In this document: positions 3,948 through 48,183 of the stretch, one piece after another
Position numbering within the stretch: position 1 is the stretch's first letter
How the letters are laid out: each line of letters opens with the position of its first letter
IMG/VR virus record: IMGVR_UViG_3300031993_000008
Location: 32,001 to 96,000 of that record
Length of the DNA stretch: 64,000 nucleotides
Direction: 5' to 3' (one strand)
DNA from: a virus
Lineage: Duplodnaviria; Caudoviricetes
Made by a program: the position numbers and the translations under genes
Notes under the pieces: model-generated
Seen by the model: only the letters and a program-made list of their open reading frames with translations
Told to the model about the DNA's origin: nothing
The model's database searches: none

Positions 3948-5690
3948 TTAATAAAGGCTTACACCCTCACCAAGCTTAATATCGAATGAGTAGTAGTAAA
4001 GCTGTGGGTGATGACCTGCACGTACGATAGCGTAACGTGACTTCAATGAAGTAACAGGAGCACCTTCCATACCCTCTGCAGGATATGAGAGCTTGTCAGC
4101 CATCAAATAAGGCATGAATACAAGACCAGGCTCGTTGTCCTTACCCTTACGACCAACAACAATCTTTGTTGATGCGAATGGGAGGTTAGGATCTACATAG
4201 ATAGATACACCTGAAATTGCACCTACTGGGTAGATTGAACCAGCATTCTGGTTGATTGTATTTGAAAGAGGATAAGCTGTGAAACCAGCGCAATCCTGGA
4301 GAGCAGTTGCAATAGCAGCAGCGCATACTGCAAATGTACCAGCACCTCTACGACCTCTCTGAGCGATAAGGTTAGAAGCGGCAAGAACCTTACTCATAAT
4401 TCTCCTCTGGATTGTACCAAGGGTTTCAGCACCACCACCAACGTATGATGAAACATAACCTTCTGGTGCAGCCTCACCTGGATTTACAGTGAAGTAAGTA
4501 TTAAGGTTGATACCTTCAAATGCCTCAGCTTCAACATGGTTCTGATCACCAAGTGCAAAAATCTCATTGAGAAGTTCACGGTTGATGTGCTGTGTCAACT
4601 CATTTACAAGCTCTGCTTCTACCTGAGCAACAGCGTCGATACCATAAGCCTTGAGGTCCTGAATCTGCTCACGAGTGATAGCACCCTTAACCTGGATGGT
4701 CTTAGCCTTTACACTCAATGTAAAGGTGTTGAGTGACATCATGTTTGAAGGAGTAGATTCACCAGTCTCTCTGTCATATGACTTTGCTGACATAGGATCG
4801 CCATTCTTGAAACCATTACCTGAGAAACCAGGGATGAAGTCTTCAAGAGCCTTAACTGTGTCAATGTCAACTACATAGAACTTTGAACCATCCTTACCAG
4901 TGATAACAGGCTCGTCAACGAGAAGAGTTTCTGCAAGTGAAGCAGCAGCACCCTCACCACCGTTAACCTTACCAAGACCAGCATAGTAAGCTTTCTCCTT
5001 AACCTGGAAGATAGGACGACCGTCGATACGACCAAGGGCTACGAAGATAAGGTCATAGTCACCTACTGAAATAGGATCCATATGAGGAACAAATGCCTTC
5101 TGGAGATCCTTGAACTTAAGAGCATGGTTGATTGCATCTTCATTAACCAAAGCAGCATCTGACTTAAGAGCATTCTCGATATCACTATCTGAGTTTGCAT
5201 CACCTGCTGAAAGGGTCAACTTAACCATAAGAGGAGCAGTCTTTGACTCATCTGCACCCTCGAAACGAGGACGGAAATTGGTCTTACCACCTTCATATAC
5301 ATAGTCCATATACTGAAGGATACCAAGAGGACCCTGCATAGGAACTACAGGTACAAGGTCAAGAGCAATTGTCTGAGCTGCAACCTGAACTGCAAGAGGA
5401 AGAAGTGAGAATGGGTTATCACCTGAACCACGAACACCGTCATAACCGTTGTTAGGATTTGCACCTGGGAAGTAAGCAGCACCCATACCACCAACATTCA
5501 TATTTGGGTTGAGATGTGCATAACCGAGAGCACTCTCATTAAGACTCTGCTTCTCATTCATATCATGATAAGCACAGTACTTTGACATCCAAGTCAATTT
5601 AGCACGATCGGTAACGCCAGTTGACTCAGTAATAAAACCTGACCAAGTTTTCAAAACTTCAGCCTCGTTCAAAATAACATTCTGTAACAT
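3948..5690 (-). CDS. Major capsid protein (T4 gp23-like)
   Basis: IALDLVPVVPMQGP, TREQIQDLKAYGIDA, SNLIAQRGRRGAG, GLVFMPY, KSRYA motifs typical of gp23; next to protease and portal. Confidence 0.92.
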   Translation of the reverse strand: MLQNVILNEAEVLKTWSGFITESTGVTDRAKLTWMSKYCAYHDMNEKQSLNESALGYAHLNPNMNVGGMGAAYFPGANPNNGYDGVRGSGDNPFSLLPLAVQVAAQTIALDLVPVVPMQGPLGILQYMDYVYEGGKTNFRPRFEGADESKTAPLMVKLTLSAGDANSDSDIENALKSDAALVNEDAINHALKFKDLQKAFVPHMDPISVGDYDLIFVALGRIDGRPIFQVKEKAYYAGLGKVNGGEGAAASLAETLLVDEPVITGKDGSKFYVVDIDTVKALEDFIPGFSGNGFKNGDPMSAKSYDRETGESTPSNMMSLNTFTLSVKAKTIQVKGAITREQIQDLKAYGIDAVAQVEAELVNELTQHINRELLNEIFALGDQNHVEAEAFEGINLNTYFTVNPGEAAPEGYVSSYVGGGAETLGTIQRRIMSKVLAASNLIAQRGRRGAGTFAVCAAAIATALQDCAGFTAYPLSNTINQNAGSIYPVGAISGVSIYVDPNLPFASTKIVVGRKGKDNEPGLVFMPYLMADKLSYPAEGMEGAPVTSLKSRYAIVRAGHHPQLYYYSFDIKLGEGVSLY

Positions 5691-6379: not shown

Positions 6380-8389
6380 TTAATATCTTCTCATCCTTCT
6401 CTGGATTACTTCAGACATTGCCTTGAGTCTTTCTTCAGAAACTACGTTTTCATTAACAGGTGTAGGTTGTGCTACTACTGCCTCATCAACTTTCTGAAGT
6501 TCAATCTGCTTGTCTCTGAAATCTCTGGTATTCCAGAAATAAACTGCACTTGCTTCATTGTTGATTACAAACATCTTTGACTCTGCAAGAATCTCCTGTT
6601 TTCTCTCATCTGAAAGTTTTGACCATCTCTCATTGAGTCTTTCAGGAAGATAGTTGATAAGTGTGAAGTTTGCTGCTTCAACATTCTTCTTTGACTCTTC
6701 AAGTGCCTTTGCCTCTGCAGCCTTTTCCTCTGCATATGCAGCCCTTGCTGTTGCAAGGATAGCATCAAGTTTCTCTGAAAGTTCTGTCTGATACTTCTTT
6801 GCATCAAACTTCTCTTCCTCAACTGTAGCAACTGGTTCAGCGGGAGTCTCTTCTGTTGTGTTGTTCTCATTGACTGGAGTTTCAACAGTTGCAGGTTCCT
6901 CAGCAGGAGTCTCTTCAGTTGTTGTATTATTCTCATTAACAGGAGTCTCAACTGTAGCAGGTTCTGTTGCTGGTTCAGCAGGAGTCTCGACAGGAGTCTC
7001 ATCCTTCTTTTCCTCAACAAGATTCAAACCACCCTTATTGAGTTCCTCAACAATGTAATCCTGATGTTCGATAATCTGGTTCATCTTCTCTGCAAGATAA
7101 TCATTATGGGCAATTGACTTATTCTGTTCCTCAGCAAGCATATTTGAATAATCAATAGACTTGTCAAGCATTTCAGCAACATAGTTCTGATATGAGATTG
7201 TGTCATTGATATTCTCTGCAAGATAATCCTGATGAGCAACCATCTGGTTCATCTTCTCTGCAAGATAATCATTGTAACCAACAATCTTGTTCATGCTCTC
7301 TGCAAGGTAGTTGTTATGTTCAATAACCTTGTTTGTCTCATCAGCGATATAATCCTGATGAATGATAGACTTATCAAGAGTCTCTGCAAGATATTTGGTA
7401 TAACTCTTAAGGTTGTTGAATGATTCTTCAGTTGCGGCAACCTTTGCCTCAAGTTCAGCCACTTTCTGATTACCTCCAACCTGTGCAGCACCATCACCAG
7501 TAATTCTGGCAACTTCCTTGGCAACAAGGTCAGCAATCTGTGAGTTATCAATTTTTGCAGGATCAAAAGTCTGGGTTGGAGTCTCACCACCCTTCTCCTT
7601 ATAACTGATCAACTCATCCTTGATATTTGAAATGGCAGACTGAAGTTCACCTACAATCTCTGACAGGTGTTCACTGTATTTCTGGAAATCAGAATACTGT
7701 ATGAATTTGTTGTCTTCCATATTTGTGTCTTTTAATGTATCCTCATTCCTTTGAGCCTGTGGTGCTGCTTGGTCAACAGTCTTGGTTACCTGGGGATCAA
7801 GGTTGGTGTTTGCATCTTCAGAGATGTCATAGATGTCAATTGAGTCATCATCACCAAATCCATAAGACTCATTAACCCTCTTGAGTTGGGCATTGGCAAA
7901 GCCAGGATCTGCAACAAGGTCATAAGTAAAAAGTTGCTGAAGCTTTACATGTCCAGATTCATCAACTGTTCCGGCAGCCCTTGATGAGATATTCAAAGGA
8001 ATACCATCCTTTACAAGTGCCTGTGCTTCCTTACCAGCAGTGGTGTTAAGGAGTCTAATCTTACCCACAATTGCATTTTGCTGTGGGTCAAATTCAAGAC
8101 TTTCAACAACATGAGAAACATTTCCAAGTGAAATCTCAAATCCATGTGGATGATCCAACTCACCAAGAAGTCTCTTACTTTCAATCTGTTCCCTCAATGC
8201 TTCTACATGTGGAAGGAAGTCAGCAGACTCATAGATTCTGCCGTTACGGTTTTTGGTATTGAAAGATGTGAAAAGTCCAGTTAATACAATAGAATCGCTG
8301 TGTTCATTATTTTCATTCAGTACCTGCTCAACTGAATAATTGAGTGTGGCATTAGAGCGTTCTACTATCAATAGTTTCTTCTCTTTCAT
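6380..8389 (-). CDS. Prohead protease (gp21-like) fused to scaffold/core domain
   Basis: NRNGRIY, LGELDHP, NVSH, ISSRAAG, YDLVADPGF motifs in first ~170 aa; long repetitive coiled-coil C-terminus. Confidence 0.88.
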   Translation of the reverse strand: MKEKKLLIVERSNATLNYSVEQVLNENNEHSDSIVLTGLFTSFNTKNRNGRIYESADFLPHVEALREQIESKRLLGELDHPHGFEISLGNVSHVVESLEFDPQQNAIVGKIRLLNTTAGKEAQALVKDGIPLNISSRAAGTVDESGHVKLQQLFTYDLVADPGFANAQLKRVNESYGFGDDDSIDIYDISEDANTNLDPQVTKTVDQAAPQAQRNEDTLKDTNMEDNKFIQYSDFQKYSEHLSEIVGELQSAISNIKDELISYKEKGGETPTQTFDPAKIDNSQIADLVAKEVARITGDGAAQVGGNQKVAELEAKVAATEESFNNLKSYTKYLAETLDKSIIHQDYIADETNKVIEHNNYLAESMNKIVGYNDYLAEKMNQMVAHQDYLAENINDTISYQNYVAEMLDKSIDYSNMLAEEQNKSIAHNDYLAEKMNQIIEHQDYIVEELNKGGLNLVEEKKDETPVETPAEPATEPATVETPVNENNTTTEETPAEEPATVETPVNENNTTEETPAEPVATVEEEKFDAKKYQTELSEKLDAILATARAAYAEEKAAEAKALEESKKNVEAANFTLINYLPERLNERWSKLSDERKQEILAESKMFVINNEASAVYFWNTRDFRDKQIELQKVDEAVVAQPTPVNENVVSEERLKAMSEVIQRRMRRY
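6821..6999 (-). repeat. Tandem PATVETPVNENNTT(T)EETPAE peptide repeats
   Basis: Two near-identical copies plus partials in the protease-scaffold linker, each containing VNE. Confidence 0.8.
7037..7393 (-). repeat. 14-residue periodic repeat (YLAExxNxxIxxQD, about 8 copies)
   Basis: Visible directly in the translation. Confidence 0.8.
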
Positions 8390-31380: not shown

Positions 31381-34300
31381 ATGATTTTAACTTTTAGAGA
31401 CTACCAATCTTGTAGTGTTGATTTCAACACATTGGGACAGATAAATGAGTCACATCAGTATTCTGATGCAATCAGTTCTGTCATGGATAAGTTCACTTTC
31501 TACATAAAGAGAAATGTCGCTCTTCAGAACAGTACCCTCAATGAGGCAGCAAAGAGAGCATACAGTAAGGATATCAAGTTCAACAGAGATGAAAGAGTCG
31601 CTGCCATCTGCATATTCAATGAAATGCTCAAACAGTATGAAGAGAATATGAAAGAGGAACTTGCTGTATGTGAAGCAATCATCAATAATGAGTCAGTCCT
31701 TGAAGAAGGTGTTGAATATGATGAGGAAACTCTTTCAAACATCCTTTCACTTAATGAGGAAATCAAGATATTCAAGAAATTGAAGAATGTCACAAAGACT
31801 GTCCTTGATGGTGCAAAAGACCTTTCTGTAAAAGGTATTGAGGTTGTAAAAGCAAAGAAGGAAGACCTTATTACCTGGGCCAAGGAAGCAAAGAAAGAAT
31901 TTGAGGAAAAATACAATGCCCTCAAAGAACTCATCAGTGATATTGTAGAGAAAGGTATTGACAGTATTGAGAAATTCATAAACAAGATTCTTGAAGTATT
32001 CACATCAATAGGTGAAAACCTTGTTGATGCAGTAAAGAAACTTGGTGGTCTCAAGATGGATAAAGATGAGAAAGCCGCAACAATTGACATTGAAGATTCT
32101 GAAGGTATCTATGCAGGTGCAAAAACTGAAGAAGAAAAATCATTTATCAATAACATCATATTGAGAGTTCAGGCAATCCTTTCAAAGGATGAGGACAATG
32201 CTGCAAAACTGATGACAGAATCATATGTTGCAGAATCTATAGTTGACAACAAGTTCATTGCCTGGTTGGCTGGTTACAAACCAGATGGTACCAAGATGAG
32301 TTGGTGGAAGTGTATACTTATTGGTCTCTGCGCATCACTTATTGTATGGATGCTTCCAAAGGTTCTGGTTCTTGCAGGTCTTGGTGGTGCTCTTACAGCA
32401 TTTATTGCAGCTCTTGTGGGTCTGACCTGGAACGGTATAGGTATGTTGAGACTTGTATATAGAAGAAACAAGGAAAGAAAACCTGGTGAAAAGTTCTTTG
32501 ATAGGAAGACCAGTATCTTCTTCGGACTTTCGCTTATTGCAAACATATTCAGTGCAGCCACATTTGTCAAGACTATTGGTCCTCTTATGAGAGAGATTTG
32601 TAACACAATGGGATGGACCGGTGGTGATGATATGAGTAAATTTGGTGAAGCAGTATATGAGATCACAAAGAAGATAAGTCCAAAGAATGCATTTTCAGAA
32701 GGTGGATTCAATGAGGTATCAGAAGAGATCCAGAATCTTGGTGGTGATTTCAGAGGAGATGACCTCTTTAAGTCAAAGGATGATGTTCTCAATGCAGTAA
32801 AAGAAATGCCTGGTTCAACCGATGCACAGGTAGATGCACTTGACAAGTTCCTTTCAGCACCTCTTGATGCAAAGGGTTCATCTGCTGTTTATGATGCGCT
32901 TGAATCATTCAAGGATAATGCAGACCTTCCTTTCACTGCTGTATTTGATACTTCAAAGTGGGGAGGTACTGGTCCTATCAGACAGGCCATTGAAGTATTG
33001 AAGGATCAACTTCCTGAATCAGCAGTCCTTGGTACTATAGGATCTGCTGCAACCCAGGAAGCATCAAAGGGTATGTATGGTTTTGCCAATTTCCTCACAG
33101 GTGTAAACCAGGAACAGGCAAATATGATTTTCCAGAAGGCTGCTGAAATTGCCGGTAAGGATATGGACTTACTCCAGTTACACACATATGGTACAGGTGA
33201 GATTGCAAATGTCATCACAACAGTTGAACCTATCAAGGGACTGTTTGATGTACTTACACCGGATGTTCCATTCCTTCCTATGGTTATGCCATTCTTTGAT
33301 GACAAGAAATGGGGTGAATATAAGATAAGGTTTGCATCAGCAACAAGAGGTGCAGCAGCTTATGTGGTTGACAGGGTTGAAATGTTACCTGCTGACAAGA
33401 TTGAAGGTTCAAGTAAAGCATTTGACACCTTGAAGACTCTCCATAACAATGCATGGGAAGAGTTCAAATCACTTGACATTGAAGACATCAAGGTAAATGA
33501 GGCAAAGGAAAAGGAAGAGAAGAAGGAAATCGAGGAACCACAGTTCATAGCATTCTATATAAAGGTAGAGGAAAAGACTGGAAAGGATGGAGATGAACCA
33601 AAGGAAGGTGAAGAGGAAAAGAAAGAAACAACCGGAGTGGGTGTTGTAATTGATACTCTTACTATGATGTGTGCTGATGTCTGCGATTTCAACGAATCAG
33701 TGGAAATCAGAAGAAGACCACAACCTTACTTTATGAAAGGTCTCCTTTCAAGACTTTCATTCAGACCATTGAAAGATAATGACAATGAAACAAAGGACTA
33801 TATCAGGACAACTCTTGGTCAGACAATGAAGACTCTTGCTTCACAGAATGTTCTTTATGGTATGGGTAAGAAATACATTGACTCAACAGTTGATGGTAAA
33901 AAAGCAAACTTCACAATAAGAAAGGAGATTTTGGGTAGTGACAAGAAAATATCTCCAAATAAGACCACATTTGAACTTGGTAACTTCTCACCTGAAGAAC
34001 TCATCAAGATTCTTACAGATGAAAGCAAGAACAACAAGGTTGCCTATGAATTCCTTGGTGGTGAATATGCATCAAAGGTTTCCGTCAAGACAAATGAGGA
34101 TGGTTCAATCAAGTCAAAATCAGTAATGAAGGATGAATCAACCATTGAGAATGTAAGATATTACAGAGTTTCAAAAGACACATATAATGAATCTATTGAA
34201 AAGTGGAAGAAAGAAGTTAAGAAGTGGGAAAAGGATGGTAAAGAAGGAAAGAAACCTACCAAACCTACATTCATCAAGGGTGATGACAAGGAATATTACA

Positions 34301-36783: not shown

Positions 36784-37338
36784 TTACTCACCCTCCTTCT
36801 TTGCTTTTTTCTTTTTCTTCTTTTTAATCTCTTTCTTGTCTGTAAGTTTGAACTCCTTACTCGGGTCAACCACAACCTTGGCCCTGGACATAAAGTCCTT
36901 ACAGAGTAGCATCCTACTCCTGTAGGTCTTAGTTCCTGACAAATCAGAAATCTTCAGGTCAACCAGTTCATCCTTGTATTCCTTTCCATTGAACTTGATG
37001 TCAACCTTTATGACCGGTCTTTCAGTTGCCTTTCCATGATGCCAAATTTTGATATGTTTCACAATATCATACTCTTTCTTCTCATCATTGAAATCAAATG
37101 AAACCTTACCATCCTTCTCTTCAAAGTCCTGGACTATGATAGCATTGTAAGCAGTGTTACCGGTATCAAGTTTTGCCTTCATCTTTCCAAGACCGATAAC
37201 CTCAATTACCTCCTTGAATCCGGAAACCTCCTTGCCATCATGTGTTTCCTTTGATGTAGGATGAACAGGAGTTTCAGGTATAAAGGATTCCACCTTCACA
37301 CCTCTACTCTTTATATATTCATCAAATTTCTTTAACAT
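36784..37338 (-). CDS. RimK-associated retropepsin-like protease (RimB / 'ATP-dependent Zn protease' family)
   Basis: KAKLDTGN, ERPVI, MLLCKDFM..VVVDP; downstream of rimK; poly-Lys tail. Confidence 0.75.
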   Translation of the reverse strand: MLKKFDEYIKSRGVKVESFIPETPVHPTSKETHDGKEVSGFKEVIEVIGLGKMKAKLDTGNTAYNAIIVQDFEEKDGKVSFDFNDEKKEYDIVKHIKIWHHGKATERPVIKVDIKFNGKEYKDELVDLKISDLSGTKTYRSRMLLCKDFMSRAKVVVDPSKEFKLTDKKEIKKKKKKKAKKEGE

Positions 37339-37507: not shown

Positions 37508-39277
37508 TTAATCTACCTTATTATATGGTGCCAGGTCAACCTCATGACCATAGAAGGCTTCTATCACACCAGCAACCTTACATGCATTCTCAAATGAGAT
37601 TGTATCATTGTTGAAGTAAGCATAATTCTCTTTACACTCAATGAGTTCATTTCCCTTGTAACTCAATGTCCAGTTATCCTTACTTTCATTTACACTCTCA
37701 ATCTTCCAGTTGTCATTCTCATATACTGACTGTTTACCCTGGATGAATCTTGTGATGAGTTTCCTCAATCCACCAAGTCTGATGTTCTCACCTTCTTCTA
37801 TTATCTTACTTTCATTTAACATAACACTTTCATCAAGTTTCTCAACAGGTACATCAAATCCTGTGGTGTTGTCTGTGAGGATGAATGAGTTCTCTACTAC
37901 AACAGCCTTGTCTGAAATTCTGTGAAGCAGCTTACTACCACCTATTGCAATATTGATATTGATATTGTCATTTACAGTCTTCAAGACAACAAGTTCATTC
38001 TTGTATATGGTACCATTGAACCTGATGTTCATCTCAACCATAGGATCTCCCTTTCTCATACCTGAAAGTTCCATCTTGTAAGTGACACCATTGAATACGA
38101 ATGTCACGTCATCGTCCTTCGCATTTACTGAACTACACTGGAGTTCTGTGAATGTCTTGTTGTCATCAAACTTCATAGCAGCATCAACACCATCACCCAA
38201 ATCCTTGAAAGTGACAGTTTCATACTTACCAATCTGATCTGAATCATACTTGGTGTACTTGAAGTCCTTGAACATATCCATCAATGTACCTACAACATCA
38301 TCACCGGCAGCAGTTGTAATACCCTTGGTACCAGGAGATGAGTTCACCTCAATCACATATGACTGCTTTGTCCTGGAATCCATAATAAGGTCAACACCGG
38401 CCCAACGACAACCTGTTGCCTTGGCTGCCATCTTTGCAATCTTCTCCTGTTCTGATGTAAGATGACCCTTCTCTGCTGTTGAACCCAGTGAGTAGTTACT
38501 TCTGAAATCGCCGGCAAGCTGGTTTCTCTGCATACATCCGATAATCTCAAAATTGTCAATACCTGGGGTCATCCTTTCAAATCCCCTATAGAGTACATGG
38601 ATACGGAGGTCATAATCTGAATTGATTTTCTCCTGGAGAAGAATATCTGCCTTTGGTACAAGTGCAAATATTGCCTGAAGGACAGATTTAAGTGAAATCA
38701 TTGAATCTATCTGGGCAACACCAATACCCTGTGTTCCCTTTGTAATCTTGATGATAAGAGGAAAACCACCACCTACAGCAGCAACCTTATCTTCAAGTTT
38801 GTTCATTGAAGAGTTGGTAACAACAGCGGTCTTTGGTGTAGGAACACCGGCAGCTTTAAGTTTCTTGTATGTGATGAACTTATCCTCACAGTTGTCAATT
38901 GCATCAAGAGTATTCAATACAAAGAATCCGTCATTCTGGAGTTCAGTAAGGAAATCCCTTGACTCGATATTCTTCAAAACTGTTCTTCTTGGAACAATGA
39001 TGGTGTTGTTTGGATTGAGGGTGAAAGTCTTTTTTGTTTCACCATTCTCAACTACATTGTAATCATCATCACTACCCTTTGAGATTGTAGATGAAGAAGG
39101 ATCAATTGTGACCAATTTCAATCCTGCCTTTTTGGCTGCCTCCTCAAAGAAAAACATTGAATTGGAACTCTTTGTGGTCTTTTCTGCCCTACTTGACAAG
39201 AAAACAACCTGGATGTTCTTTGCTTTCTTACTTTCATTAAGAGGAGCATATCCTTTACTTGAATATTTCATAGTCAT
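37508..39277 (-). CDS. rimK: RimK-family ATP-grasp glutamate ligase with degenerate protease-like and extra C-terminal domains
   Basis: DKFITY..L..AGVPTPKT, FPLIIK..GTQGIGV, LLQEKI, DLRIHV, FRSNYSLG, AGVDLI, EVNSSPG. Confidence 0.85.
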   Translation of the reverse strand: MTMKYSSKGYAPLNESKKAKNIQVVFLSSRAEKTTKSSNSMFFFEEAAKKAGLKLVTIDPSSSTISKGSDDDYNVVENGETKKTFTLNPNNTIIVPRRTVLKNIESRDFLTELQNDGFFVLNTLDAIDNCEDKFITYKKLKAAGVPTPKTAVVTNSSMNKLEDKVAAVGGGFPLIIKITKGTQGIGVAQIDSMISLKSVLQAIFALVPKADILLQEKINSDYDLRIHVLYRGFERMTPGIDNFEIIGCMQRNQLAGDFRSNYSLGSTAEKGHLTSEQEKIAKMAAKATGCRWAGVDLIMDSRTKQSYVIEVNSSPGTKGITTAAGDDVVGTLMDMFKDFKYTKYDSDQIGKYETVTFKDLGDGVDAAMKFDDNKTFTELQCSSVNAKDDDVTFVFNGVTYKMELSGMRKGDPMVEMNIRFNGTIYKNELVVLKTVNDNININIAIGGSKLLHRISDKAVVVENSFILTDNTTGFDVPVEKLDESVMLNESKIIEEGENIRLGGLRKLITRFIQGKQSVYENDNWKIESVNESKDNWTLSYKGNELIECKENYAYFNNDTISFENACKVAGVIEAFYGHEVDLAPYNKVD

Positions 39278-39300
39278 AAATGTATATAATTTCAATATAG

Positions 39301-39340
39301 TATTTATGAAAAAGAGTGAGAATCAATCTCACTCCCTTTA
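39301..39340 (-). promoter_or_regulatory. Terminator hairpin plus late promoter CATAAATA (39301-39308)
   Basis: gagtgaga-atcaa-tctcactc followed on the minus strand by CATAAATA. Confidence 0.65.
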
Positions 39341-41269
39341 TCTTCTATCCATCTGGTTGTATGTCCTGTCAACATACTCTCTGAAATCATCCACATAGTC
39401 ATAAACCTTTGCATTTGGTGAATGTACACAAGGTTCATCTTCCTTCCTGAATTTCTTTGATTTCTTCTTTTTCTTCTTTATCTGTTTAAGGAACATTGTA
39501 TATGGTGCAACCTGGTGGTAAACTATTCCTGTTGGTGATGGAAGGTCTCCTGATCCAGGCTCACCATTTGGACCTGGAAAATAAGCAGCACCCATTCCAC
39601 CCACACTGGCAGGTGTGGCACCACCCGGAACACCCTCACATTCATTTGTGATATTTTTTTGTCTTTCTGCCTCTTCCATTTCAACATATCCTGAAAGTCT
39701 GTCTGACAATTCATCAGCCCAATAGTTCCTGACATAATTCAATATACCTTCAATGTTGGCATCCTGTGACACAACACCCTCTCTGTCATTACTTTCAATA
39801 TAATCACAAAGACCATCAAGTGAAAACTCATAATCATCATATACTATCCTAGTAGCATAAAAAACAAGGAACTGTTCAAGATTATCCATATCTTCAAATG
39901 ATAACTCATCCTCCTTCTTTATTTTCTCACCACTACCCCTGTCCAATATACCTTTCCAGACTGATTCATTTGTAGGATGCCATGCAACATATTCTGTCAT
40001 CTTTTCCTCCCATGTGAGGTCACCCCACATATCACTTGGATTGACATAGTTGTCTTCACATCCTCTGGAGTATAATACATCCATTCTATCACTTTCATCC
40101 AATGAATCTGCCCACCAAGTATCAAGTGTATCATCTATGGTCTTACCTGGTTGCTTCTCAAAACCTATTTTCTTTATTTTCTCATTTTCTGAATTAATCT
40201 CCTCATCTATGACTTTTTTAACTTTTCCCCAACATCTCTTGGCAAAATCAACCTTCCTCACTACATATTCCTTTGCTTTATTGTCAATGATGTTCCATCT
40301 TTCCTTGCAGAACCTTTCAAAGTCATAGAGGATGTTTTTGTACTGTTCATAATACACTATCCTTTCCACAAATGACCTGATGTCATATTTAATGTCATCA
40401 ACAGTAAGGTCATCCTCCTTTCTTACACTGTCTCCTGAACCCCTGTCAAGCATACCACCCCAGGTTGATTCATTCACATATTGACTGTTCAGGGAATCGA
40501 CAACATCATCAATTTGCTTATTTAAATTATCAATCGCATCTTCTATGGCAGGAAGTACAGTATCATCCCAGTGTTCTTTGGTGTAGTCCAGGAGATCATC
40601 CATATTGTAATCAATTGATGACACCCTTGGTTTATCCTTATAATCTTTTATAAAGGCTTTGAATTCAGAATAACTACCCACAGTATAATCATGTGTGTAT
40701 TCTATTGCTGCAAATATTTCTATATATGCAGAAAGGGCGTTCAGAAGATTTTCTGATATTTTGTCTTCTTTCCTTTTGTCATCTCCTCTACCTCTGTCAA
40801 GTATTCCACCCCAGGCGGATTCATTGACAAGCATATTATCTTTATTATTCAAAAAGAATTCAATTACATCTATGTATGTCTTATTGGTACAAGTACCATC
40901 TTCTTCTTTTATAACTCTTCTACATGTACCTATATTTTCTACATTAAACTTTTCTGATAAAGCCCACAAAAATGAGTGTCTTATTTTTACACCTACACCA
41001 GACCAAGACAACACAATATGATCCATTTCACCATCCTCATTATAAATGGTCTTTAATGATATATTACCTATTATATCAACACAAATTTCCCATGAATTGA
41101 ATTTACCTGTATACTTATCTAAATAAAATATCCTTTTCTCATATTTGGACTTGATATAATCATAAAGACCATCAACATCAAGGAGATTGATATCATCCTC
41201 CTTTCTGATAGTCTCTCCTGTACCCCTATCAAGGACATCACCCCAGACTGATTCACTGATTTTCTTCAT
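39338..41269 (-). CDS. Tag-delimited polyprotein (4 WGGILDRG tags) with capsid N-arm-like C-terminal module
   Basis: Four ES.W..[IMV]LDRG.G...KED motifs; VGGMGAAYFPG identical to capsid; basic tail. Confidence 0.75.
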   Translation of the reverse strand: MKKISESVWGDVLDRGTGETIRKEDDINLLDVDGLYDYIKSKYEKRIFYLDKYTGKFNSWEICVDIIGNISLKTIYNEDGEMDHIVLSWSGVGVKIRHSFLWALSEKFNVENIGTCRRVIKEEDGTCTNKTYIDVIEFFLNNKDNMLVNESAWGGILDRGRGDDKRKEDKISENLLNALSAYIEIFAAIEYTHDYTVGSYSEFKAFIKDYKDKPRVSSIDYNMDDLLDYTKEHWDDTVLPAIEDAIDNLNKQIDDVVDSLNSQYVNESTWGGMLDRGSGDSVRKEDDLTVDDIKYDIRSFVERIVYYEQYKNILYDFERFCKERWNIIDNKAKEYVVRKVDFAKRCWGKVKKVIDEEINSENEKIKKIGFEKQPGKTIDDTLDTWWADSLDESDRMDVLYSRGCEDNYVNPSDMWGDLTWEEKMTEYVAWHPTNESVWKGILDRGSGEKIKKEDELSFEDMDNLEQFLVFYATRIVYDDYEFSLDGLCDYIESNDREGVVSQDANIEGILNYVRNYWADELSDRLSGYVEMEEAERQKNITNECEGVPGGATPASVGGMGAAYFPGPNGEPGSGDLPSPTGIVYHQVAPYTMFLKQIKKKKKKSKKFRKEDEPCVHSPNAKVYDYVDDFREYVDRTYNQMDRR

Positions 41270-41274
41270 AATAA

Positions 41275-41312
41275 TATTTATGAAAAAAGGTGAGAATCAC
41301 TTCTCACCTTTC
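41275..41312 (-). promoter_or_regulatory. Terminator hairpin plus late promoter CATAAATA (41275-41282)
   Basis: aaaggtgagaa-tcac-ttctcaccttt followed on the minus strand by CATAAATA. Confidence 0.6.
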
Positions 41313-42166: not shown

Positions 42167-42436
42167 CTACAATTTACCTATTATCATATCTGGAGTAATG
42201 ACAACATACTCCACATCCTCAACCTTAATATATATTCCTCCCATATCAGCAAAGGCAATATGGTCTCCCTTCTTCCACTCATTCTCAAGACCCACACTGT
42301 CAATCACTCCGGTATATGGTTCAGGTATCTCATACATATTCTGGGGTTGTCTGTCTGGAAGAATCAGGGGTGAATTGTTCACACTCTTATCCTTCACCAA
42401 TATTATAGTATCATTTATTGCCTGAAACTTCATCAT
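42167..42436 (-). CDS. groES: GroES/Cpn10-like co-chaperonin
   Basis: AINDTIIL, LILPD, TGVIDSVG, KKGDHI, IIGKL pattern. Confidence 0.75.
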   Translation of the reverse strand: MMKFQAINDTIILVKDKSVNNSPLILPDRQPQNMYEIPEPYTGVIDSVGLENEWKKGDHIAFADMGGIYIKVEDVEYVVITPDMIIGKL

Positions 42437-44450: not shown

Positions 44451-45221
44451 ATGAAGAAATTAAGTAAAATAGATGAATCAGTCTGGGGTGGTATCCTTGA
44501 CAGAGGAACAGGTGAAATCAATAGAAAGGAGTATGGTAAAAAAGTCCATACCTGTATAGATATTGACATTTACATTAAAGATTCATCCTGTCAGTATGAC
44601 AAATACATAAAACACATCCTGGATTATGATAACTATAAATTACCTTGCAGAATTTGTATAGGTTTTGAACGAATCAGTAATCCAACATATACTCCTGAGG
44701 ATTTGGCAAAAATGAAAAACTTTGAAATGCCATATGATTATGTACTTGATGAATACACCAAACCTAAAAATGAATTTGACTATCTTGTTGCATGGTTTTG
44801 GAAATATAATGAATTTATGGACCACAATACCAATGCTGACATCACTGAAGATGATTATATGTCAATATGTAGAGGTATAGCAATCAAACTAAAAGAGATA
44901 GGTAATCGTATTGAACATATGCCTGGAAACAAAACCAATATTATTGGTCAGGATGGTGTATCCAGTAAGTATTCCAATTTTGCCTTGAAATTGATGGATG
45001 AAAAAAATACTTTCCACTGGAAACATGCACATAATGGCAAATCCTTACTTGATTACAAAGAAGATATGATTCATGAATTTCCGGAATTGAAAGATGTTGA
45101 TTTCTTAATGTGGCCATTCAATCAATTCCCTTATGTAAACATTGGTCTTCCAATCACATCAGTAACTGTCAAAGACTTCAAAAAATATGAAGAATATACT
45201 CATAATTGGTTTACAGTATAA
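44451..45221 (+). CDS. WGGILDRG-tag family protein 1
   Basis: MKKLSKIDESVWGGILDRGTGE leader; full-length paralog of next gene. Confidence 0.8.
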   Translation: MKKLSKIDESVWGGILDRGTGEINRKEYGKKVHTCIDIDIYIKDSSCQYDKYIKHILDYDNYKLPCRICIGFERISNPTYTPEDLAKMKNFEMPYDYVLDEYTKPKNEFDYLVAWFWKYNEFMDHNTNADITEDDYMSICRGIAIKLKEIGNRIEHMPGNKTNIIGQDGVSSKYSNFALKLMDEKNTFHWKHAHNGKSLLDYKEDMIHEFPELKDVDFLMWPFNQFPYVNIGLPITSVTVKDFKKYEEYTHNWFTV

Positions 45222-46003
45222 TGAAGAAATTAAGTAAAATAGATGAATCTACCTGGGGTAATATGTTGGATAGAGGTACTGGTGGTGTAATCAAAAAAGA
45301 AGATGGTAAACTTGTACACACATGTCTTGATGTAGATATAGCCATCAAAGACCAGAAATGTGATTATAATACACTCATTAAAGAAATATTGAATGATGAT
45401 TTTATTAGTGGATTTTACCAAGGGGTGGTAATACTAAATACACAACAGAAATCATATTCACCAGAAGAGATGGCAAACATAAGAAAATTTGAAGCACCAT
45501 ATGCATATCTCATTTATGATGGTAAACATGGTACAAGTCTTGTTGCTGAATTCTGGGCATATTCTGAATTCCAGGATTCTGACCTTACTACTGATTTTAT
45601 TGAAAGTGTATCGGAAGAGGATTACATATCCATCTGTAAAGGTATTGCCACAAAACTGAAAGAAGTCGGAGGAGACATTGCACAACTTCCAAGAAGACAT
45701 TCCACAATTTCTAACACAAAAGACCGTGATTTCAATGATGAATATGTGTTTAAACTCATTGATGAATCAGATATTGCATGGTGGGGAGACTATCCTGATC
45801 CAGAAGGAAGGACTCTTACTGATTTTGAAACGGATATGTTCACAGAGTATCCGGAATTAGCAGATGTTGATTTCTTCACTTGGACATTTTATAGCGGATG
45901 TAATATAGGTATCCCTATCAATTATGACACACTTGTTAATTTCAAGAAATATAAAGAATTTACTAAAAACTGGTTTAAAGTAACAGATGAAGAAACTGAG
46001 TAA
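45221..46003 (+). CDS. WGGILDRG-tag family protein 2
   Basis: MKKLSKIDESTWGNMLDRGTG; TAATG coupling to previous gene. Confidence 0.8.
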   Translation: MKKLSKIDESTWGNMLDRGTGGVIKKEDGKLVHTCLDVDIAIKDQKCDYNTLIKEILNDDFISGFYQGVVILNTQQKSYSPEEMANIRKFEAPYAYLIYDGKHGTSLVAEFWAYSEFQDSDLTTDFIESVSEEDYISICKGIATKLKEVGGDIAQLPRRHSTISNTKDRDFNDEYVFKLIDESDIAWWGDYPDPEGRTLTDFETDMFTEYPELADVDFFTWTFYSGCNIGIPINYDTLVNFKKYKEFTKNWFKVTDEETE

Positions 46004-46982
46004 AATAGATGAATCAACCTGGGGTGATATACTTGACAGAGGTTCAGGAGATACTGTGAGAAAAGAGGATGATGTGAATCATTTTGAGTTCTATGATTTT
46101 GTTCATTATCTTGAAGAGAAATATCCTTCCAAAAACAGAGGTACTGGAATTGTATCTGGGCAATCAATTAAAAACAAAAATATTCTCTATTTATCTATAC
46201 CAATTAAAAGATTTGATAATAAAACTCAATGGTTAAGAATTGAGGTTGATAAAGAAACATTAAAGTATACAGGAAACATAGAGGTTAGCAAATCCTTACA
46301 TACCGAATATGAATATACTTTGTTTTCTAAAAAGATATTGGGTAAAAAGTATAAGATTCTGTATAATTTTAGATTTGAAGACTATATATTGAGACCTATT
46401 GATGGTGAGATAACAAACAGTAGCATTGTGGAATTGATTGACATGTTTTTGCATAATGTTGATAACCCATTATTGAATATAGATGTCAATGAATCCACCT
46501 GGGGTGGTATCCTTGACAGGGGTGCTGGTGATGCCATAAGAAAGGAAGACTTACCGGAACAAAATAAGGAACACTGGTGGAGAAACATTGAATTACCAAA
46601 TGTTCCAAAGTATAAAAAAGATGAGCTCAAGGCATTGGATCTGATGTATGATTTTGCTGTGGATAAGATTAGAAAAAGATTCAATGTTTCCTGGCCATAC
46701 CAGATAGTGTTTCACTTTGATGGTGAACCATATTGGGATTTAAATATTGAACACATAACCCCACGAGGTTATGATACTTTTGCTATGTATGCTCATGGAC
46801 CCAGAGCGCCCTGGCAGATTTATTTTTCAGATATGTCAATGGGTGAAAAGAGAAGTATAAGATACAGACTTGAAAAGAAGAAGTTCTATGTATATCCATA
46901 TAAATATGGAGATGGAAGAGTAGAGTATCATTTAAGGGAACAAAGTACCTATAATAATGAAAAAGGAATTGAATTGAAATGA
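45987..46982 (+). CDS. WGGILDRG-tag family protein 3 (two-module polyprotein)
   Basis: N-terminal tag plus internal VNESTWGGILDRGAGD at about 46485-46550. Confidence 0.8.
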   Translation: MKKLSKIDESTWGDILDRGSGDTVRKEDDVNHFEFYDFVHYLEEKYPSKNRGTGIVSGQSIKNKNILYLSIPIKRFDNKTQWLRIEVDKETLKYTGNIEVSKSLHTEYEYTLFSKKILGKKYKILYNFRFEDYILRPIDGEITNSSIVELIDMFLHNVDNPLLNIDVNESTWGGILDRGAGDAIRKEDLPEQNKEHWWRNIELPNVPKYKKDELKALDLMYDFAVDKIRKRFNVSWPYQIVFHFDGEPYWDLNIEHITPRGYDTFAMYAHGPRAPWQIYFSDMSMGEKRSIRYRLEKKKFYVYPYKYGDGRVEYHLREQSTYNNEKGIELK

Positions 46983-47611
46983 TAAAAATAGGCTTGGATT
47001 TCTCACTTGTATCCCCGGCAATATGTGTTTACAAGAATGGAGAGTATTCTTTCATCTCCTTCTTTGATGATTATGGAAAGGACTGGAAAGGAGGAAAGAT
47101 AAAGGCATTCAACTACCATAGGGATCTGTCAAAGTTTATGGAGATGAATCCCTACACAAGACATATTGAAAAGAAGGATTACAGGGAGGAACAGAGGACA
47201 AAGATGAGGGCTGCGAAGATGATCGCAAATAAGATCTCCAACAGACTTGTTGAGATTGTTGGTGGTGAGGAGGTCATCATAGGTCTTGAAGGATTCTCAT
47301 ATGGCAGTATTTCATCATCCACCCTGGACCTGGCACTCTTCAACTCATTTCTCAGGATAAAACTCCTTGAGGATTTCGGTGAGGATTGTCTTGTAATCAT
47401 CTCCCCTACAGAAGGTAAGAAAAACCTTTCAGGTAAGGGAAATGCAAAGAAGGAGGATATGATCCAGGCCTTCATTGAGAACAGGACAAATGACCCGGAT
47501 ATTGAGAGATGTCCATTCTGGAAGTTCTGTAAGGAGAATGAACTTGATTATAAGAACATAAAACCTATTGATGACCTTGTGGATTCATATGGTATATTGA
47601 TAAGTATATGA
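46979..47611 (+). CDS. RuvC-like Holliday junction resolvase
   Basis: IGLDFSL, IGLEGFSY, SPTEGKK..SGKGNAKKEDM, DDLVDSY. Confidence 0.78.
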   Translation: MIKIGLDFSLVSPAICVYKNGEYSFISFFDDYGKDWKGGKIKAFNYHRDLSKFMEMNPYTRHIEKKDYREEQRTKMRAAKMIANKISNRLVEIVGGEEVIIGLEGFSYGSISSSTLDLALFNSFLRIKLLEDFGEDCLVIISPTEGKKNLSGKGNAKKEDMIQAFIENRTNDPDIERCPFWKFCKENELDYKNIKPIDDLVDSYGILISI

Positions 47612-48183
47612 AAAAGTTAAGTAAAATAGATGAGTCAACCTGGGGCAATCTCCTGGACAAAGGTGCCGGAGAAAAAGAAGCAAAGGAAGATACATTCAAT
47701 TTCAACTTCTATCAAATAAAACCGGTTGATTTGGGTCCAGAATTTCCATTCCTTTGGGCAGATACTGACCTGATTGCCAATGATGAAATATACTTTGATT
47801 GGGACACATTACAGAGAATGCTTCCCCAAATTAAGAAAACAGGATGGAGACTTCCCTATTCACCAAACCAAATGAGAGATGTTATTAAACTCATAAACAC
47901 ATCACCTAATCTGAAAACAGTATGGCACCGCAGGGCATTTGGAATGATAGAGAATACAGACACTGGTGAATATGTATCATTTCCTACAGGTAGTCAATTT
48001 GGAGAAACCTATTGGTGTGAAGATGATTATCATTCAACCAATCCAGGAAGACAAATTGAAAATGAAAGGGTATTTGAAATAGGTGAAAACTATTATCAAG
48101 ATGGTAAAAAGATGGTTTTACTTTCAACTAATAATATGGAAAAAACAAGAACAGCAAGAATAAGACTCGTAAAGGACAAATGA
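47608..48183 (+). CDS. WGGILDRG-tag family protein 4 with DUF1566/Fib_succ_major-like domain
   Basis: Tag then VDLG..LWADTDL..YFDW..GWRLP..YW..IRLVKD. Confidence 0.7.
   Translation: MKKLSKIDESTWGNLLDKGAGEKEAKEDTFNFNFYQIKPVDLGPEFPFLWADTDLIANDEIYFDWDTLQRMLPQIKKTGWRLPYSPNQMRDVIKLINTSPNLKTVWHRRAFGMIENTDTGEYVSFPTGSQFGETYWCEDDYHSTNPGRQIENERVFEIGENYYQDGKKMVLLSTNNMEKTRTARIRLVKDK

Follow-up and report, generated by a model that had tools for sequence, protein, structure and literature searches.

A modular protein with repeated tags, putative prohead-protease sites and a capsid-arm-like anchor in an uncultured T4-like jumbo phage

The internal proteins IPI-III and Alt of phage T4, substrates of the prohead protease gp21, are encoded by diverse, fast-changing and separate genes that share a conserved N-terminal element: a leader of about 10 residues that ends in I/L-x-E and is removed by cleavage after Glu in the prohead (PMC9026906, PMC3012670, PMC9958956). 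The T4 enzyme cleaves after L/I-x-E, reading positions P3 and P1 (PMC9026906), and its giant-phage relatives cleave after A/S/G-x-E (PMC10052503). The phiKZ-like giant myoviruses carry many head-internal proteins, among them the inner-body and ejection proteins SPN3US gp53 and gp54 and the substrates of phiKZ gp175; these form paralogous families and are cut after x-x-E, some of them at several sites, by a gp21-related protease that removes N-terminal propeptides (PMC10052503, PMC5694885). Finally, packaging and injection are predicted for the ‘polyvalent proteins’ (Iyer, Burroughs, Anand, de Souza and Aravind 2017; PMC5512222), some of which have been suggested to be processed into separate products. 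Here we analyse the open reading frame (ORF) 39338-41269(-) in 64,000 nucleotides (nt) of a Caudoviricetes genome from cattle gut (IMG/VR record IMGVR_UViG_3300031993_000008, positions 32,001 to 96,000; ‘the window’ refers to this whole stretch). On balance, it probably encodes a late, prohead-targeted multi-cargo precursor that the head protease cuts into separate small proteins.

The 643-amino-acid (aa) product, with the working label P0001, is laid out as ‘beads on a string’: a leader, four tag-plus-module units and a C-terminal anchor, all on the minus strand of 39338..41269. The 6-residue leader (41252..41269) ends in I-S-E, putative cleavage site 1 (the start of I-S-E is listed as 41254), and is followed by tag 1 (aa 7-26; 41192..41251) and by module 1 (aa 27-147; 40829..41191), an alpha/beta domain of the family that we call B. 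Putative site 2, V-N-E (aa 148-150; 40820..40828), leads into tag 2 (aa 151-170; 40760..40819) and the helical, family-E module 2 (aa 171-264; 40478..40759); putative site 3, again V-N-E (aa 265-267; 40469..40477), leads into tag 3 (aa 268-287; 40409..40468) and module 3 (aa 288-432; 39974..40408), which belongs to family D and consists of two helical units; and putative site 4, T-N-E (aa 433-435; 39965..39973), leads into tag 4 (aa 436-455; 39905..39964) and the helical, family-F module 4 (aa 456-540; 39650..39904). A fifth putative site, T-N-E followed by Cys (aa 541-543; 39641..39649), precedes the anchor. The first half of the anchor (aa 544-596; 39482..39640) is homologous to the N-terminal part of the mature major capsid protein, and the second half (aa 597-643; 39341..39481) holds a poly-Lys run, an F-R-K-E-D-E-P-C motif and a terminal helix. 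An earlier reading of this DNA, made without database searches (the sequence-only reading), had correctly placed four tag-delimited units at 41269, 40828, 40477 and 39973, which are the positions where the ORF and the V-N-E, V-N-E and T-N-E motifs begin, but had overlooked the fifth site and the anchor.

An AlphaFold model built on an alignment of 45 co-linear relatives contains four confident domains. The predicted local distance difference test (pLDDT) score is about 72-94 for module 1 (aa 27-148 in the model) and about 75-96 for the helical modules 2-4; it is below 50 in the segments that link the domains (residues 149-169, 262-285 and 433-449, at tags 2, 3 and 4), each with one short helix, and about 45-51 in tag 1, also with one short helix. 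A separate model of tag 4 and module 4 alone gave the same picture. The tags are thus predicted to be flexible linkers between independently folded modules. Cutting at the putative sites would yield four acidic products of 16.8, 13.5, 20.1 and 12.7 kDa from modules 1-4 (isoelectric points (pI) of 4.2-4.8) and a basic anchor product of 11.1 kDa (pI 9.1).

We scanned the six frames of the window for the tag motif W-[GK]-x-x-L-D-R-G-x-G and detected 10 copies. Four are in ORF 39338-41269(-), with the Trp at aa 9, 153, 270 and 438; the remaining six are at the N-termini of ORFs 44451, 45218, 45987, 47608 and 49013 and at an internal position of ORF 45987, and two further copies lie outside the window on the 155.5-kb contig. 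The tag is about 20 residues long, and each copy in ORF 39338-41269(-) directly follows [T/V/I]-x-E. ORF 45987 (45987..46982, plus strand) is a two-module relative composed of a leader, a tag, a family-B module, V-N-E, a second tag and a second domain, with the anchor absent. The two tagged genes outside the window (contig positions 1918-2499(-) and 117819-119138(-)) both lie behind the octamer C-A-T-A-A-A-T-A (see below): one has a 13-residue leader ending in L-E-E|S, and the other has a 120-residue untagged N-terminal domain, then I-E-E|S, the tag and a long acidic domain.

A protein search with the whole ORF returned 148 homologues at E<=0.001, 360-1111 residues long and many of them on contigs of 230-416 kb; a tag profile found 463 tags in 120 of the 148. 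We counted the non-redundant junctions of these 120 proteins, which come from uncultured ruminant-gut jumbo phages. At internal tag junctions (n=225), P1 is Glu in 223 and P3 is V, T, M, I or L in 219; P2 is Asn in 177 and otherwise Y, K, S, T, D, F or G, and P4-P6 are unconstrained. N-terminal leaders of 4-13 residues (n=53) have Glu at P1 without exception (53/53) and I, L, T, M or V at P3 in all but one (52/53), and the junctions before the anchor (n=59) have Glu at P1 in 53 and I, L, M, V or T at P3 in 52. As judged from sequence, this P3/P1 pattern is the L/I-x-E rule of T4-type prohead proteases. The statement of the sequence-only reading that internal tags have lost the M-K-K-L-S-K leader and kept x-N-E|S holds for the ORF and across the 225 junctions of its relatives. 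In the 47.7 k residues encoded by the contig, [TVMIL]-N-E-[SNC] occurs 28 times, and the two genes richest in it are the protease-scaffold gene (5 occurrences, Poisson P=6e-5) and ORF 39338-41269(-) (4 occurrences, P=6e-4). With 14 of the 22 P3 codons being something other than a start codon, internal translation starts at P3 were rejected as a general explanation of the junctions. We also considered self-cleavage by 2A-like or intein-like motifs, and none is present.

The head machinery of the same phage has putative protease sites of its own. The window belongs to a T4-like jumbo myovirus with a gp23-like capsid protein, an S77/S80 protease-scaffold protein, a T4-type (gp20-like) portal and a sheath (Pfam matches PF03420, S77 protease, at 2.3e-8, PF07068 at 9e-35 and PF07230 at 9e-70; the protease also matches PHROG 207 at 1e-39). 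Among deposited capsid proteins, the nearest belong to an uncultured 462-kb phage (44% identity), the Lak megaphages of Prevotella (33%) and Flavobacteriia phages. In the major capsid protein (gene 3948-5690), L-N-E at aa 50-52 (5535..5543, minus strand) is the likely propeptide cleavage site, and the mature N-terminal arm that the anchor resembles follows at aa 53-110 (5361..5534, minus strand). The protease is fused to the scaffold (6380-8389), and its domain (aa 1-174 of the fusion; 7868..8389, minus strand) is flanked by L-N-E (aa 24-26) and V-N-E (aa 172-174). The same putative x-N-E cleavage motif is what marks the capsid propeptide boundary and both ends of the protease domain. In capsid homologues, [L/I/M]-N-E|[S/N] is kept in 120 of 120 while P4 varies; at the C-terminal end of the protease domain, the site does not vary among five related genomes, and relatives at only 31% identity have L-N-E there as well. 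Complex prediction for protease residues 1-175 with a 45-residue junction peptide, run without controls, scored 0.00 and is no evidence either way.

Further along the same fusion protein, aa 330-452 (7034-7402(-)) form nine repeats with a period of exactly 14 residues, each carrying Y/M-[L/I/V]-[A/V]-E/D (aa 333, 347, 361 ... 445), a T4-type L-x-E site, so that the scaffold could be diced into 14-residue peptides; two acidic T-P-V-N-E-N-N repeats come after the nine.

A candidate expression signal also links the gene to the structural genes. The octamer C-A-T-A-A-A-T-A lies 6 nt upstream of the start codon of ORF 39338-41269 (41275..41282, minus strand). It occurs 20 times in the window as compared to 4.5 expected, 6-110 nt upstream of structural and tag genes (sites include 8423, 10214, 16214, 26728, 31347, 39301, 41275 and 44420), and precedes the genes for the protease, the portal, the sheath and an ATP-grasp protein, ORF 39338-41269 itself and the tag-gene cluster (44420). 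We regard the octamer as a candidate late-promoter element of this phage clade, which would fit co-regulation of the ORF with late genes. Scans for sigma-70-type promoters and terminators were uninformative.

How, then, does this locus compare with the described systems? It resembles that of T4 in its gp23/gp20/gp21-like head module, in its short leaders ending in I/L-x-E and in the presence of diverse, fast-changing cargo joined to a shared conserved element. However, cleavage after Glu in the prohead, established for T4, is proposed here, and the layout differs. When we looked for a capsid-targeting sequence of the T4 type, leaders of 4-13 residues were present, but conservation lies in the tag that follows the site, and the internal copies lack a leader. 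The conserved tag, lying on the C-terminal (P') side of the putative cut, would stay on each product, which makes it unlikely to be a removable leader like that of T4: about 10 residues are removed in T4, whereas here 20 conserved residues would be retained. T4 cargoes are separate genes, while here up to seven tagged modules share one ORF; T4 has no counterpart of the capsid-arm-like anchor, and there is no sequence similarity between the two systems.

The likeness to polyvalent proteins lies in many unrelated domains per chain and in highly variable architectures. Two to fifteen domains in variable architectures characterise that class, and the relatives of ORF 39338-41269 have 77 architectures in 120 proteins, with 2-8 units each. 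Polyvalent proteins are mostly enzymatic, GNAT domains occurring among them; they are tied to delivery by MuF/portal or a type IV secretion system (T4SS) and have a peptidase domain of their own where processed (PMC5512222). Here, by contrast, the modules are small and non-enzymatic, with a fold that has no known match, and the ORF combines a repeated tag, prohead-protease-type sites and a capsid-mimicking anchor, upon which delivery would depend. No MuF/portal or T4SS delivery component is fused to ORF 39338-41269 or neighbours it, and Pfam and PHROG searches found in it no recognisable conflict enzyme or inhibitor domain (MPTase, ART, GNAT or ParB-like). The phiKZ-like ejection proteins share with it a giant-myovirus setting and, if it is cut as proposed, processing after x-x-E at several sites, but their motif is A/S/G-x-E, their cuts remove N-terminal propeptides rather than separating modules, and they have no repeated tag or anchor. 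An alignment of the mature N-terminus of SPN3US gp54 with the start of the tag matched at 7 residues (3.4 bits), which we rejected as chance; tblastn with the ORF against 50,697 phage records likewise showed no homology to these protein families. RNA-virus and retrovirus polyproteins are alike in principle, with one translation product, a viral protease and sites between domains, but there is no evolutionary relation, and the protease is here encoded separately and would act inside the assembled prohead.

The sequence-only reading had called this strategy unusual for phages with double-stranded DNA. This was overstated: multi-site cutting is known for the T4 head-core proteins gp22, gp67 and gp68 and for the ejection proteins of phiKZ and SPN3US (PMC9026906, PMC10052503), and packaged multi-domain polyvalent proteins have been described (PMC5512222). 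What sets the locus apart from the T4 internal-protein system and from polyvalent proteins is the combination of several cargoes per ORF, a tag that would be retained after the cut, a capsid-arm-like anchor and the absence of a MuF/portal fusion or a peptidase of its own. If our interpretation is true, then in a clade of jumbo phages abundant in the ruminant gut the capsid receives its cargo through one modular precursor, which is brought in by the anchor, is separated into pieces at the protease sites and has its cassettes exchanged by recombination at the tags. The homologues would then constitute a sequence-readable catalogue of candidate injected proteins for phages that have so far resisted cultivation (about 440 modules in 77 architectures), and the precursor would be a natural design for packaging several foreign proteins at once, a task for which T4 engineering now makes a separate fusion each time.

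The anchor, the last 100 residues, is the most conserved part of the protein (mean column identity of 79% and 52 invariant positions among 20 diverse members). The homology of its first half to the arm at the N-terminus of the mature capsid protein is supported by BLASTP (E=2e-8) and by hhalign (96.9% probability, E=2e-10), and the distance from x-N-E to the shared motif G-G-M-G-x-x-x-F-P-G is 12 residues in the anchor and 13-14 in the capsid protein. AlphaFold predicts disorder for residues 543-617 and a terminal helix for residues 621-642, yet the first half is near-invariant. In the T4 capsid the equivalent segment is disordered inside the prohead and, after cleavage and expansion, becomes the N-fist/N-arm that binds four neighbouring subunits (PMC9958956); by this analogy, imitation of the capsid arm is a plausible route by which the anchor may dock to the shell or core. 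An exhaustive profile search over 1.84 billion representatives found 59 clusters with an anchor. Stand-alone anchor genes of 110-117 residues consist of a 6-10-residue leader ending in x-N-E|C and the anchor, several of them carrying the capsid protein’s own insertion N-P-N-N-G-Y-D-G-x-R-G-S-G-D, and one member of the family is just leader, tag and anchor. The stand-alone anchors P0141, P0146, P0139, P0134 and P0138 are from more distant phages. To judge by these sequences, stand-alone anchors appear to be a small, uncharacterised family of head proteins derived from the capsid protein N-terminus, and the simplest history is that one such protease-processed head protein gained cargo modules in the propeptide position. 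How a non-capsid protein could use the capsid protein’s own N-terminal arm is a question that this raises.

To define module families, we cut the homologues at their tags and clustered the pieces. Family B (module 1) has 110 copies in 81 proteins, family D (module 3) 101 copies, family E (module 2) 68 and family F (module 4) 50; family C (102 copies), absent from ORF 39338-41269(-), is usually the unit right before the anchor, and the anchor itself, always the C-terminal piece when counted, has 117 copies. In profile-profile comparison, C, D, E and F are mutually related (95-97% probability, E of 1e-8 to 1e-11) and form a superfamily whose building block is a helical unit of about 80 residues; family B is unrelated to it. 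The mutual likeness of modules 2-4 proposed by the sequence-only reading is hereby confirmed, although plain BLASTP among them was not significant (E of 0.17-5). Also borne out was the resemblance of module 1 to the first module of ORF 45987: BLASTP gave E=8e-18 with the tags included, and the tag-free family-B profile matched that module over the whole profile length at E=1e-10. ORF 39338-41269(-) matched no Pfam or PHROG family, and tblastn against 50,697 deposited phage genomes and records found no match, and we know of no relative in culture; Foldseek with the whole model against PDB and BFVD returned nothing at E<=0.001. For module 1, VIA-wide fold matches to 1yb3 and to the C-terminal double-wing domain of T4 MotA (Z of 7.1-7.6) were at background level and were discarded; for the single helical unit of module 4, the best Z was 4.8 and the template-modelling (TM) score in the Atlas was <0.5.

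Module number had been proposed as a point of comparison among relatives, and it does vary: the 120 proteins with tags hold about 440 modules in 77 different orders, with the anchor at the C-terminus in 117 of the 120. Some relatives contain DUF285/LRR domains, and some have an N-terminal GNAT acetyltransferase module without a preceding tag, which could enter the head only as part of the precursor. In one related genome, a single 434-residue ORF (L001:3149-4450(-)) corresponds to two tagged genes that are separate in the window (44451-48183); it joins a 44451/45218-type module to an apparent 47608-type module (this second match was judged by eye and not scored). Here genes were fused or split at a tag, and at the joint the M-K-K-L-S-K leader is gone and I-D-E|S is retained. 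We then aligned contigs from other ruminant samples to the gene. One contig joins tag 1 straight to tag 2, omitting 444 nt that are exactly module 1, and in others the sequence that runs from tag 3 through tag 4 to the anchor is replaced or reordered; loose alignment ends cluster at 39940-39970, 40410-40474, 40781-40798 and 41237-41243, all within tags. Since homology breaks and rejoins inside the tags, these are the seams of natural cassette exchange. The public runs in which parts of the gene occur are gut metagenomes of cattle, goats and sheep; no RNA run is listed among them.

We compared tag versions across the window and three related IMG/VR genomes, whose capsid proteins are 92-97% identical to that of the window and whose protease domains are almost identical. 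Each genome has its own tag version, the same on its separate tag-cargo genes and on every polyprotein unit. At identical tag residues the same codon is used in just 56-74% of comparisons: uniformity within a genome is thus kept at the protein level and not solely by recent DNA copying, which makes recent gene conversion unlikely as its sole cause. As the tag would be kept on the products and one genome-specific version is shared by all tagged genes, its most likely role is to bind a single partner, common to the products of one phage but different from phage to phage. Two of the three related genomes share a further pattern with the window: the codon ahead of the invariant Trp ends in C every time (GTC, ACC or GCC, with ATC in some relatives), for example at window positions 41245, 40813, 40462, 39958 and 44484, giving a conserved C-T-G-G-G-G in the DNA of a genome with 36% G+C; the exception is the genome L004, with mostly A/T-ending codons.

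A bolder extension, which we put forward tentatively and with rather low confidence, is that the tag is a genome-specific N-terminal address label activated only when the head protease exposes it. The released modules would share a free S-x-W end read by one co-evolving partner, for example for ordered ejection through the tail or so that a phage or host factor can capture them; the anchor, by imitating the N-fist/N-arm, would become inserted in the capsid lattice. Together the two would make a sorting code, programmable in nature, by which interchangeable protein cassettes are loaded and delivered, and no phage has been described with such a code. The precursor interpretation itself raises the question of which factor recognises a peptide kept uniform on a dozen genes within one phage and yet different between phages with near-identical head proteins.

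The precursor interpretation that we favour can be put as a sequence of steps. The gene would be expressed late, alongside the head genes, and the precursor built into the prohead core, probably directed by its anchor, with a possible contribution from the tags. The protease would then cut after each Glu, yielding four modules that start with the S-x-W tag and an anchor that starts with Cys. By analogy with T4 IPI-III and Alt, the modules would be internal or ejection proteins with a fast-changing repertoire, and the anchor would stay with the shell or DNA. Of maturation by the head protease, as the sequence-only reading had it, every prediction that could be tested in silico holds (protease, sites, linkers, shuffling), while the cutting itself, like packaging and ejection, is inferred. 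Several observations weigh against this interpretation. The gene sits among replication, recombination and chaperonin genes, outside the head-gene block. The modules have no function recognisable by Pfam, PHROG or fold searches of the models. Tag versions do not co-vary with the capsid protein, the protease or the scaffold repeats: these are near-invariant while the tags differ, so none of them is an obvious co-evolving partner. The variant of G-G-M-G-x-x-x-F-P-G in the anchor does not track that of the capsid protein in the same genome. The conserved part of the tag is on the P' side of the putative cut, unlike the T4 targeting sequence. Finally, the conserved block runs unbroken from P3 to about P20', so that the conserved positions before the tag could be mere tag motif.

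This last observation is also an argument for an uncut 75-kDa multi-domain protein, head-internal or scaffold-like, in which the tags serve as linkers or binding peptides and [T/V/M/I/L]-N-E is simply where the tag motif starts: site and tag are inseparable by conservation alone, and the acidic, helical modules with a basic C-terminus recall scaffolding proteins. We nevertheless consider an uncut protein unlikely. The x-N-E motif is also present where there is no tag, namely at the anchor, at the boundary of the capsid propeptide and on either side of the protease domain; no N-terminal copy starts at the tag, each having a leader of 4-13 residues that ends in Glu; and 77 architectures are not expected of an assembly protein where capsid proteins are 76-98% identical. 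Alternatively, the protein might be cut and yet deliver no cargo, the anchor being the sole mature virion part and the array of tags and modules an expanded N-terminal propeptide for assembly or core filling, chopped and expelled like T4 gp22, gp67 and gp68 or the long SPN3US propeptides. Minimal members composed of a short leader and the anchor do place the modules in the propeptide position, the long propeptides of SPN3US are cut several times and largely lost from the capsid (PMC10052503), and each of the nine 14-residue repeats of the neighbouring scaffold ends in a T4-type site. But enzyme modules (GNAT, DUF285/LRR) are found in relatives, some tag-cargo genes stand alone and lack an anchor, module turnover is rapid and arms-race-like, and a conserved tag on every piece is hard to explain as waste, all of which makes expulsion quite improbable in our judgement. 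We give very little credence to a cytoplasmic multi-effector that is never packaged, whose tags bind a host or phage factor and whose capsid-like segment recruits the chaperone of the capsid protein, for example one of GroEL/GroES type. A host-side partner would fit genome-specific tags in the face of conserved head proteins, a Cpn10 gene lies 900 bp away, and the N-terminus of the T4 capsid protein directs proteins to GroEL, at least as cited in PMC10052503; against this, P3 and P1 follow the rule of prohead proteases, structural genes have the candidate late-gene motif as well, and what the anchor has in common with the capsid protein is the mature arm and not the propeptide.

As for the immediate surroundings, the neighbours of ORF 39338-41269 are ATP-grasp, PD-(D/E)XK-like, Cpn10, Mre11-like and RecA-like genes. 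The Cpn10/GroES-like co-chaperonin (42167-42436(-), Pfam 1.8e-7) is a likely analogue of T4 gp31. The adjoining gene encodes a RimK-like ATP-grasp protein (37508-39295(-), Pfam 1e-28) and has its own C-A-T-A-A-A-T-A at 39301; the protein contains three [L/V]-N-E|S motifs, one of them 21 residues from the N-terminus, and may be another substrate of the head protease. After the ATP-grasp gene, 36784-37338(-) encodes a protein with a RimB-like ‘Zn_protease’ domain that ends in a poly-Lys run.

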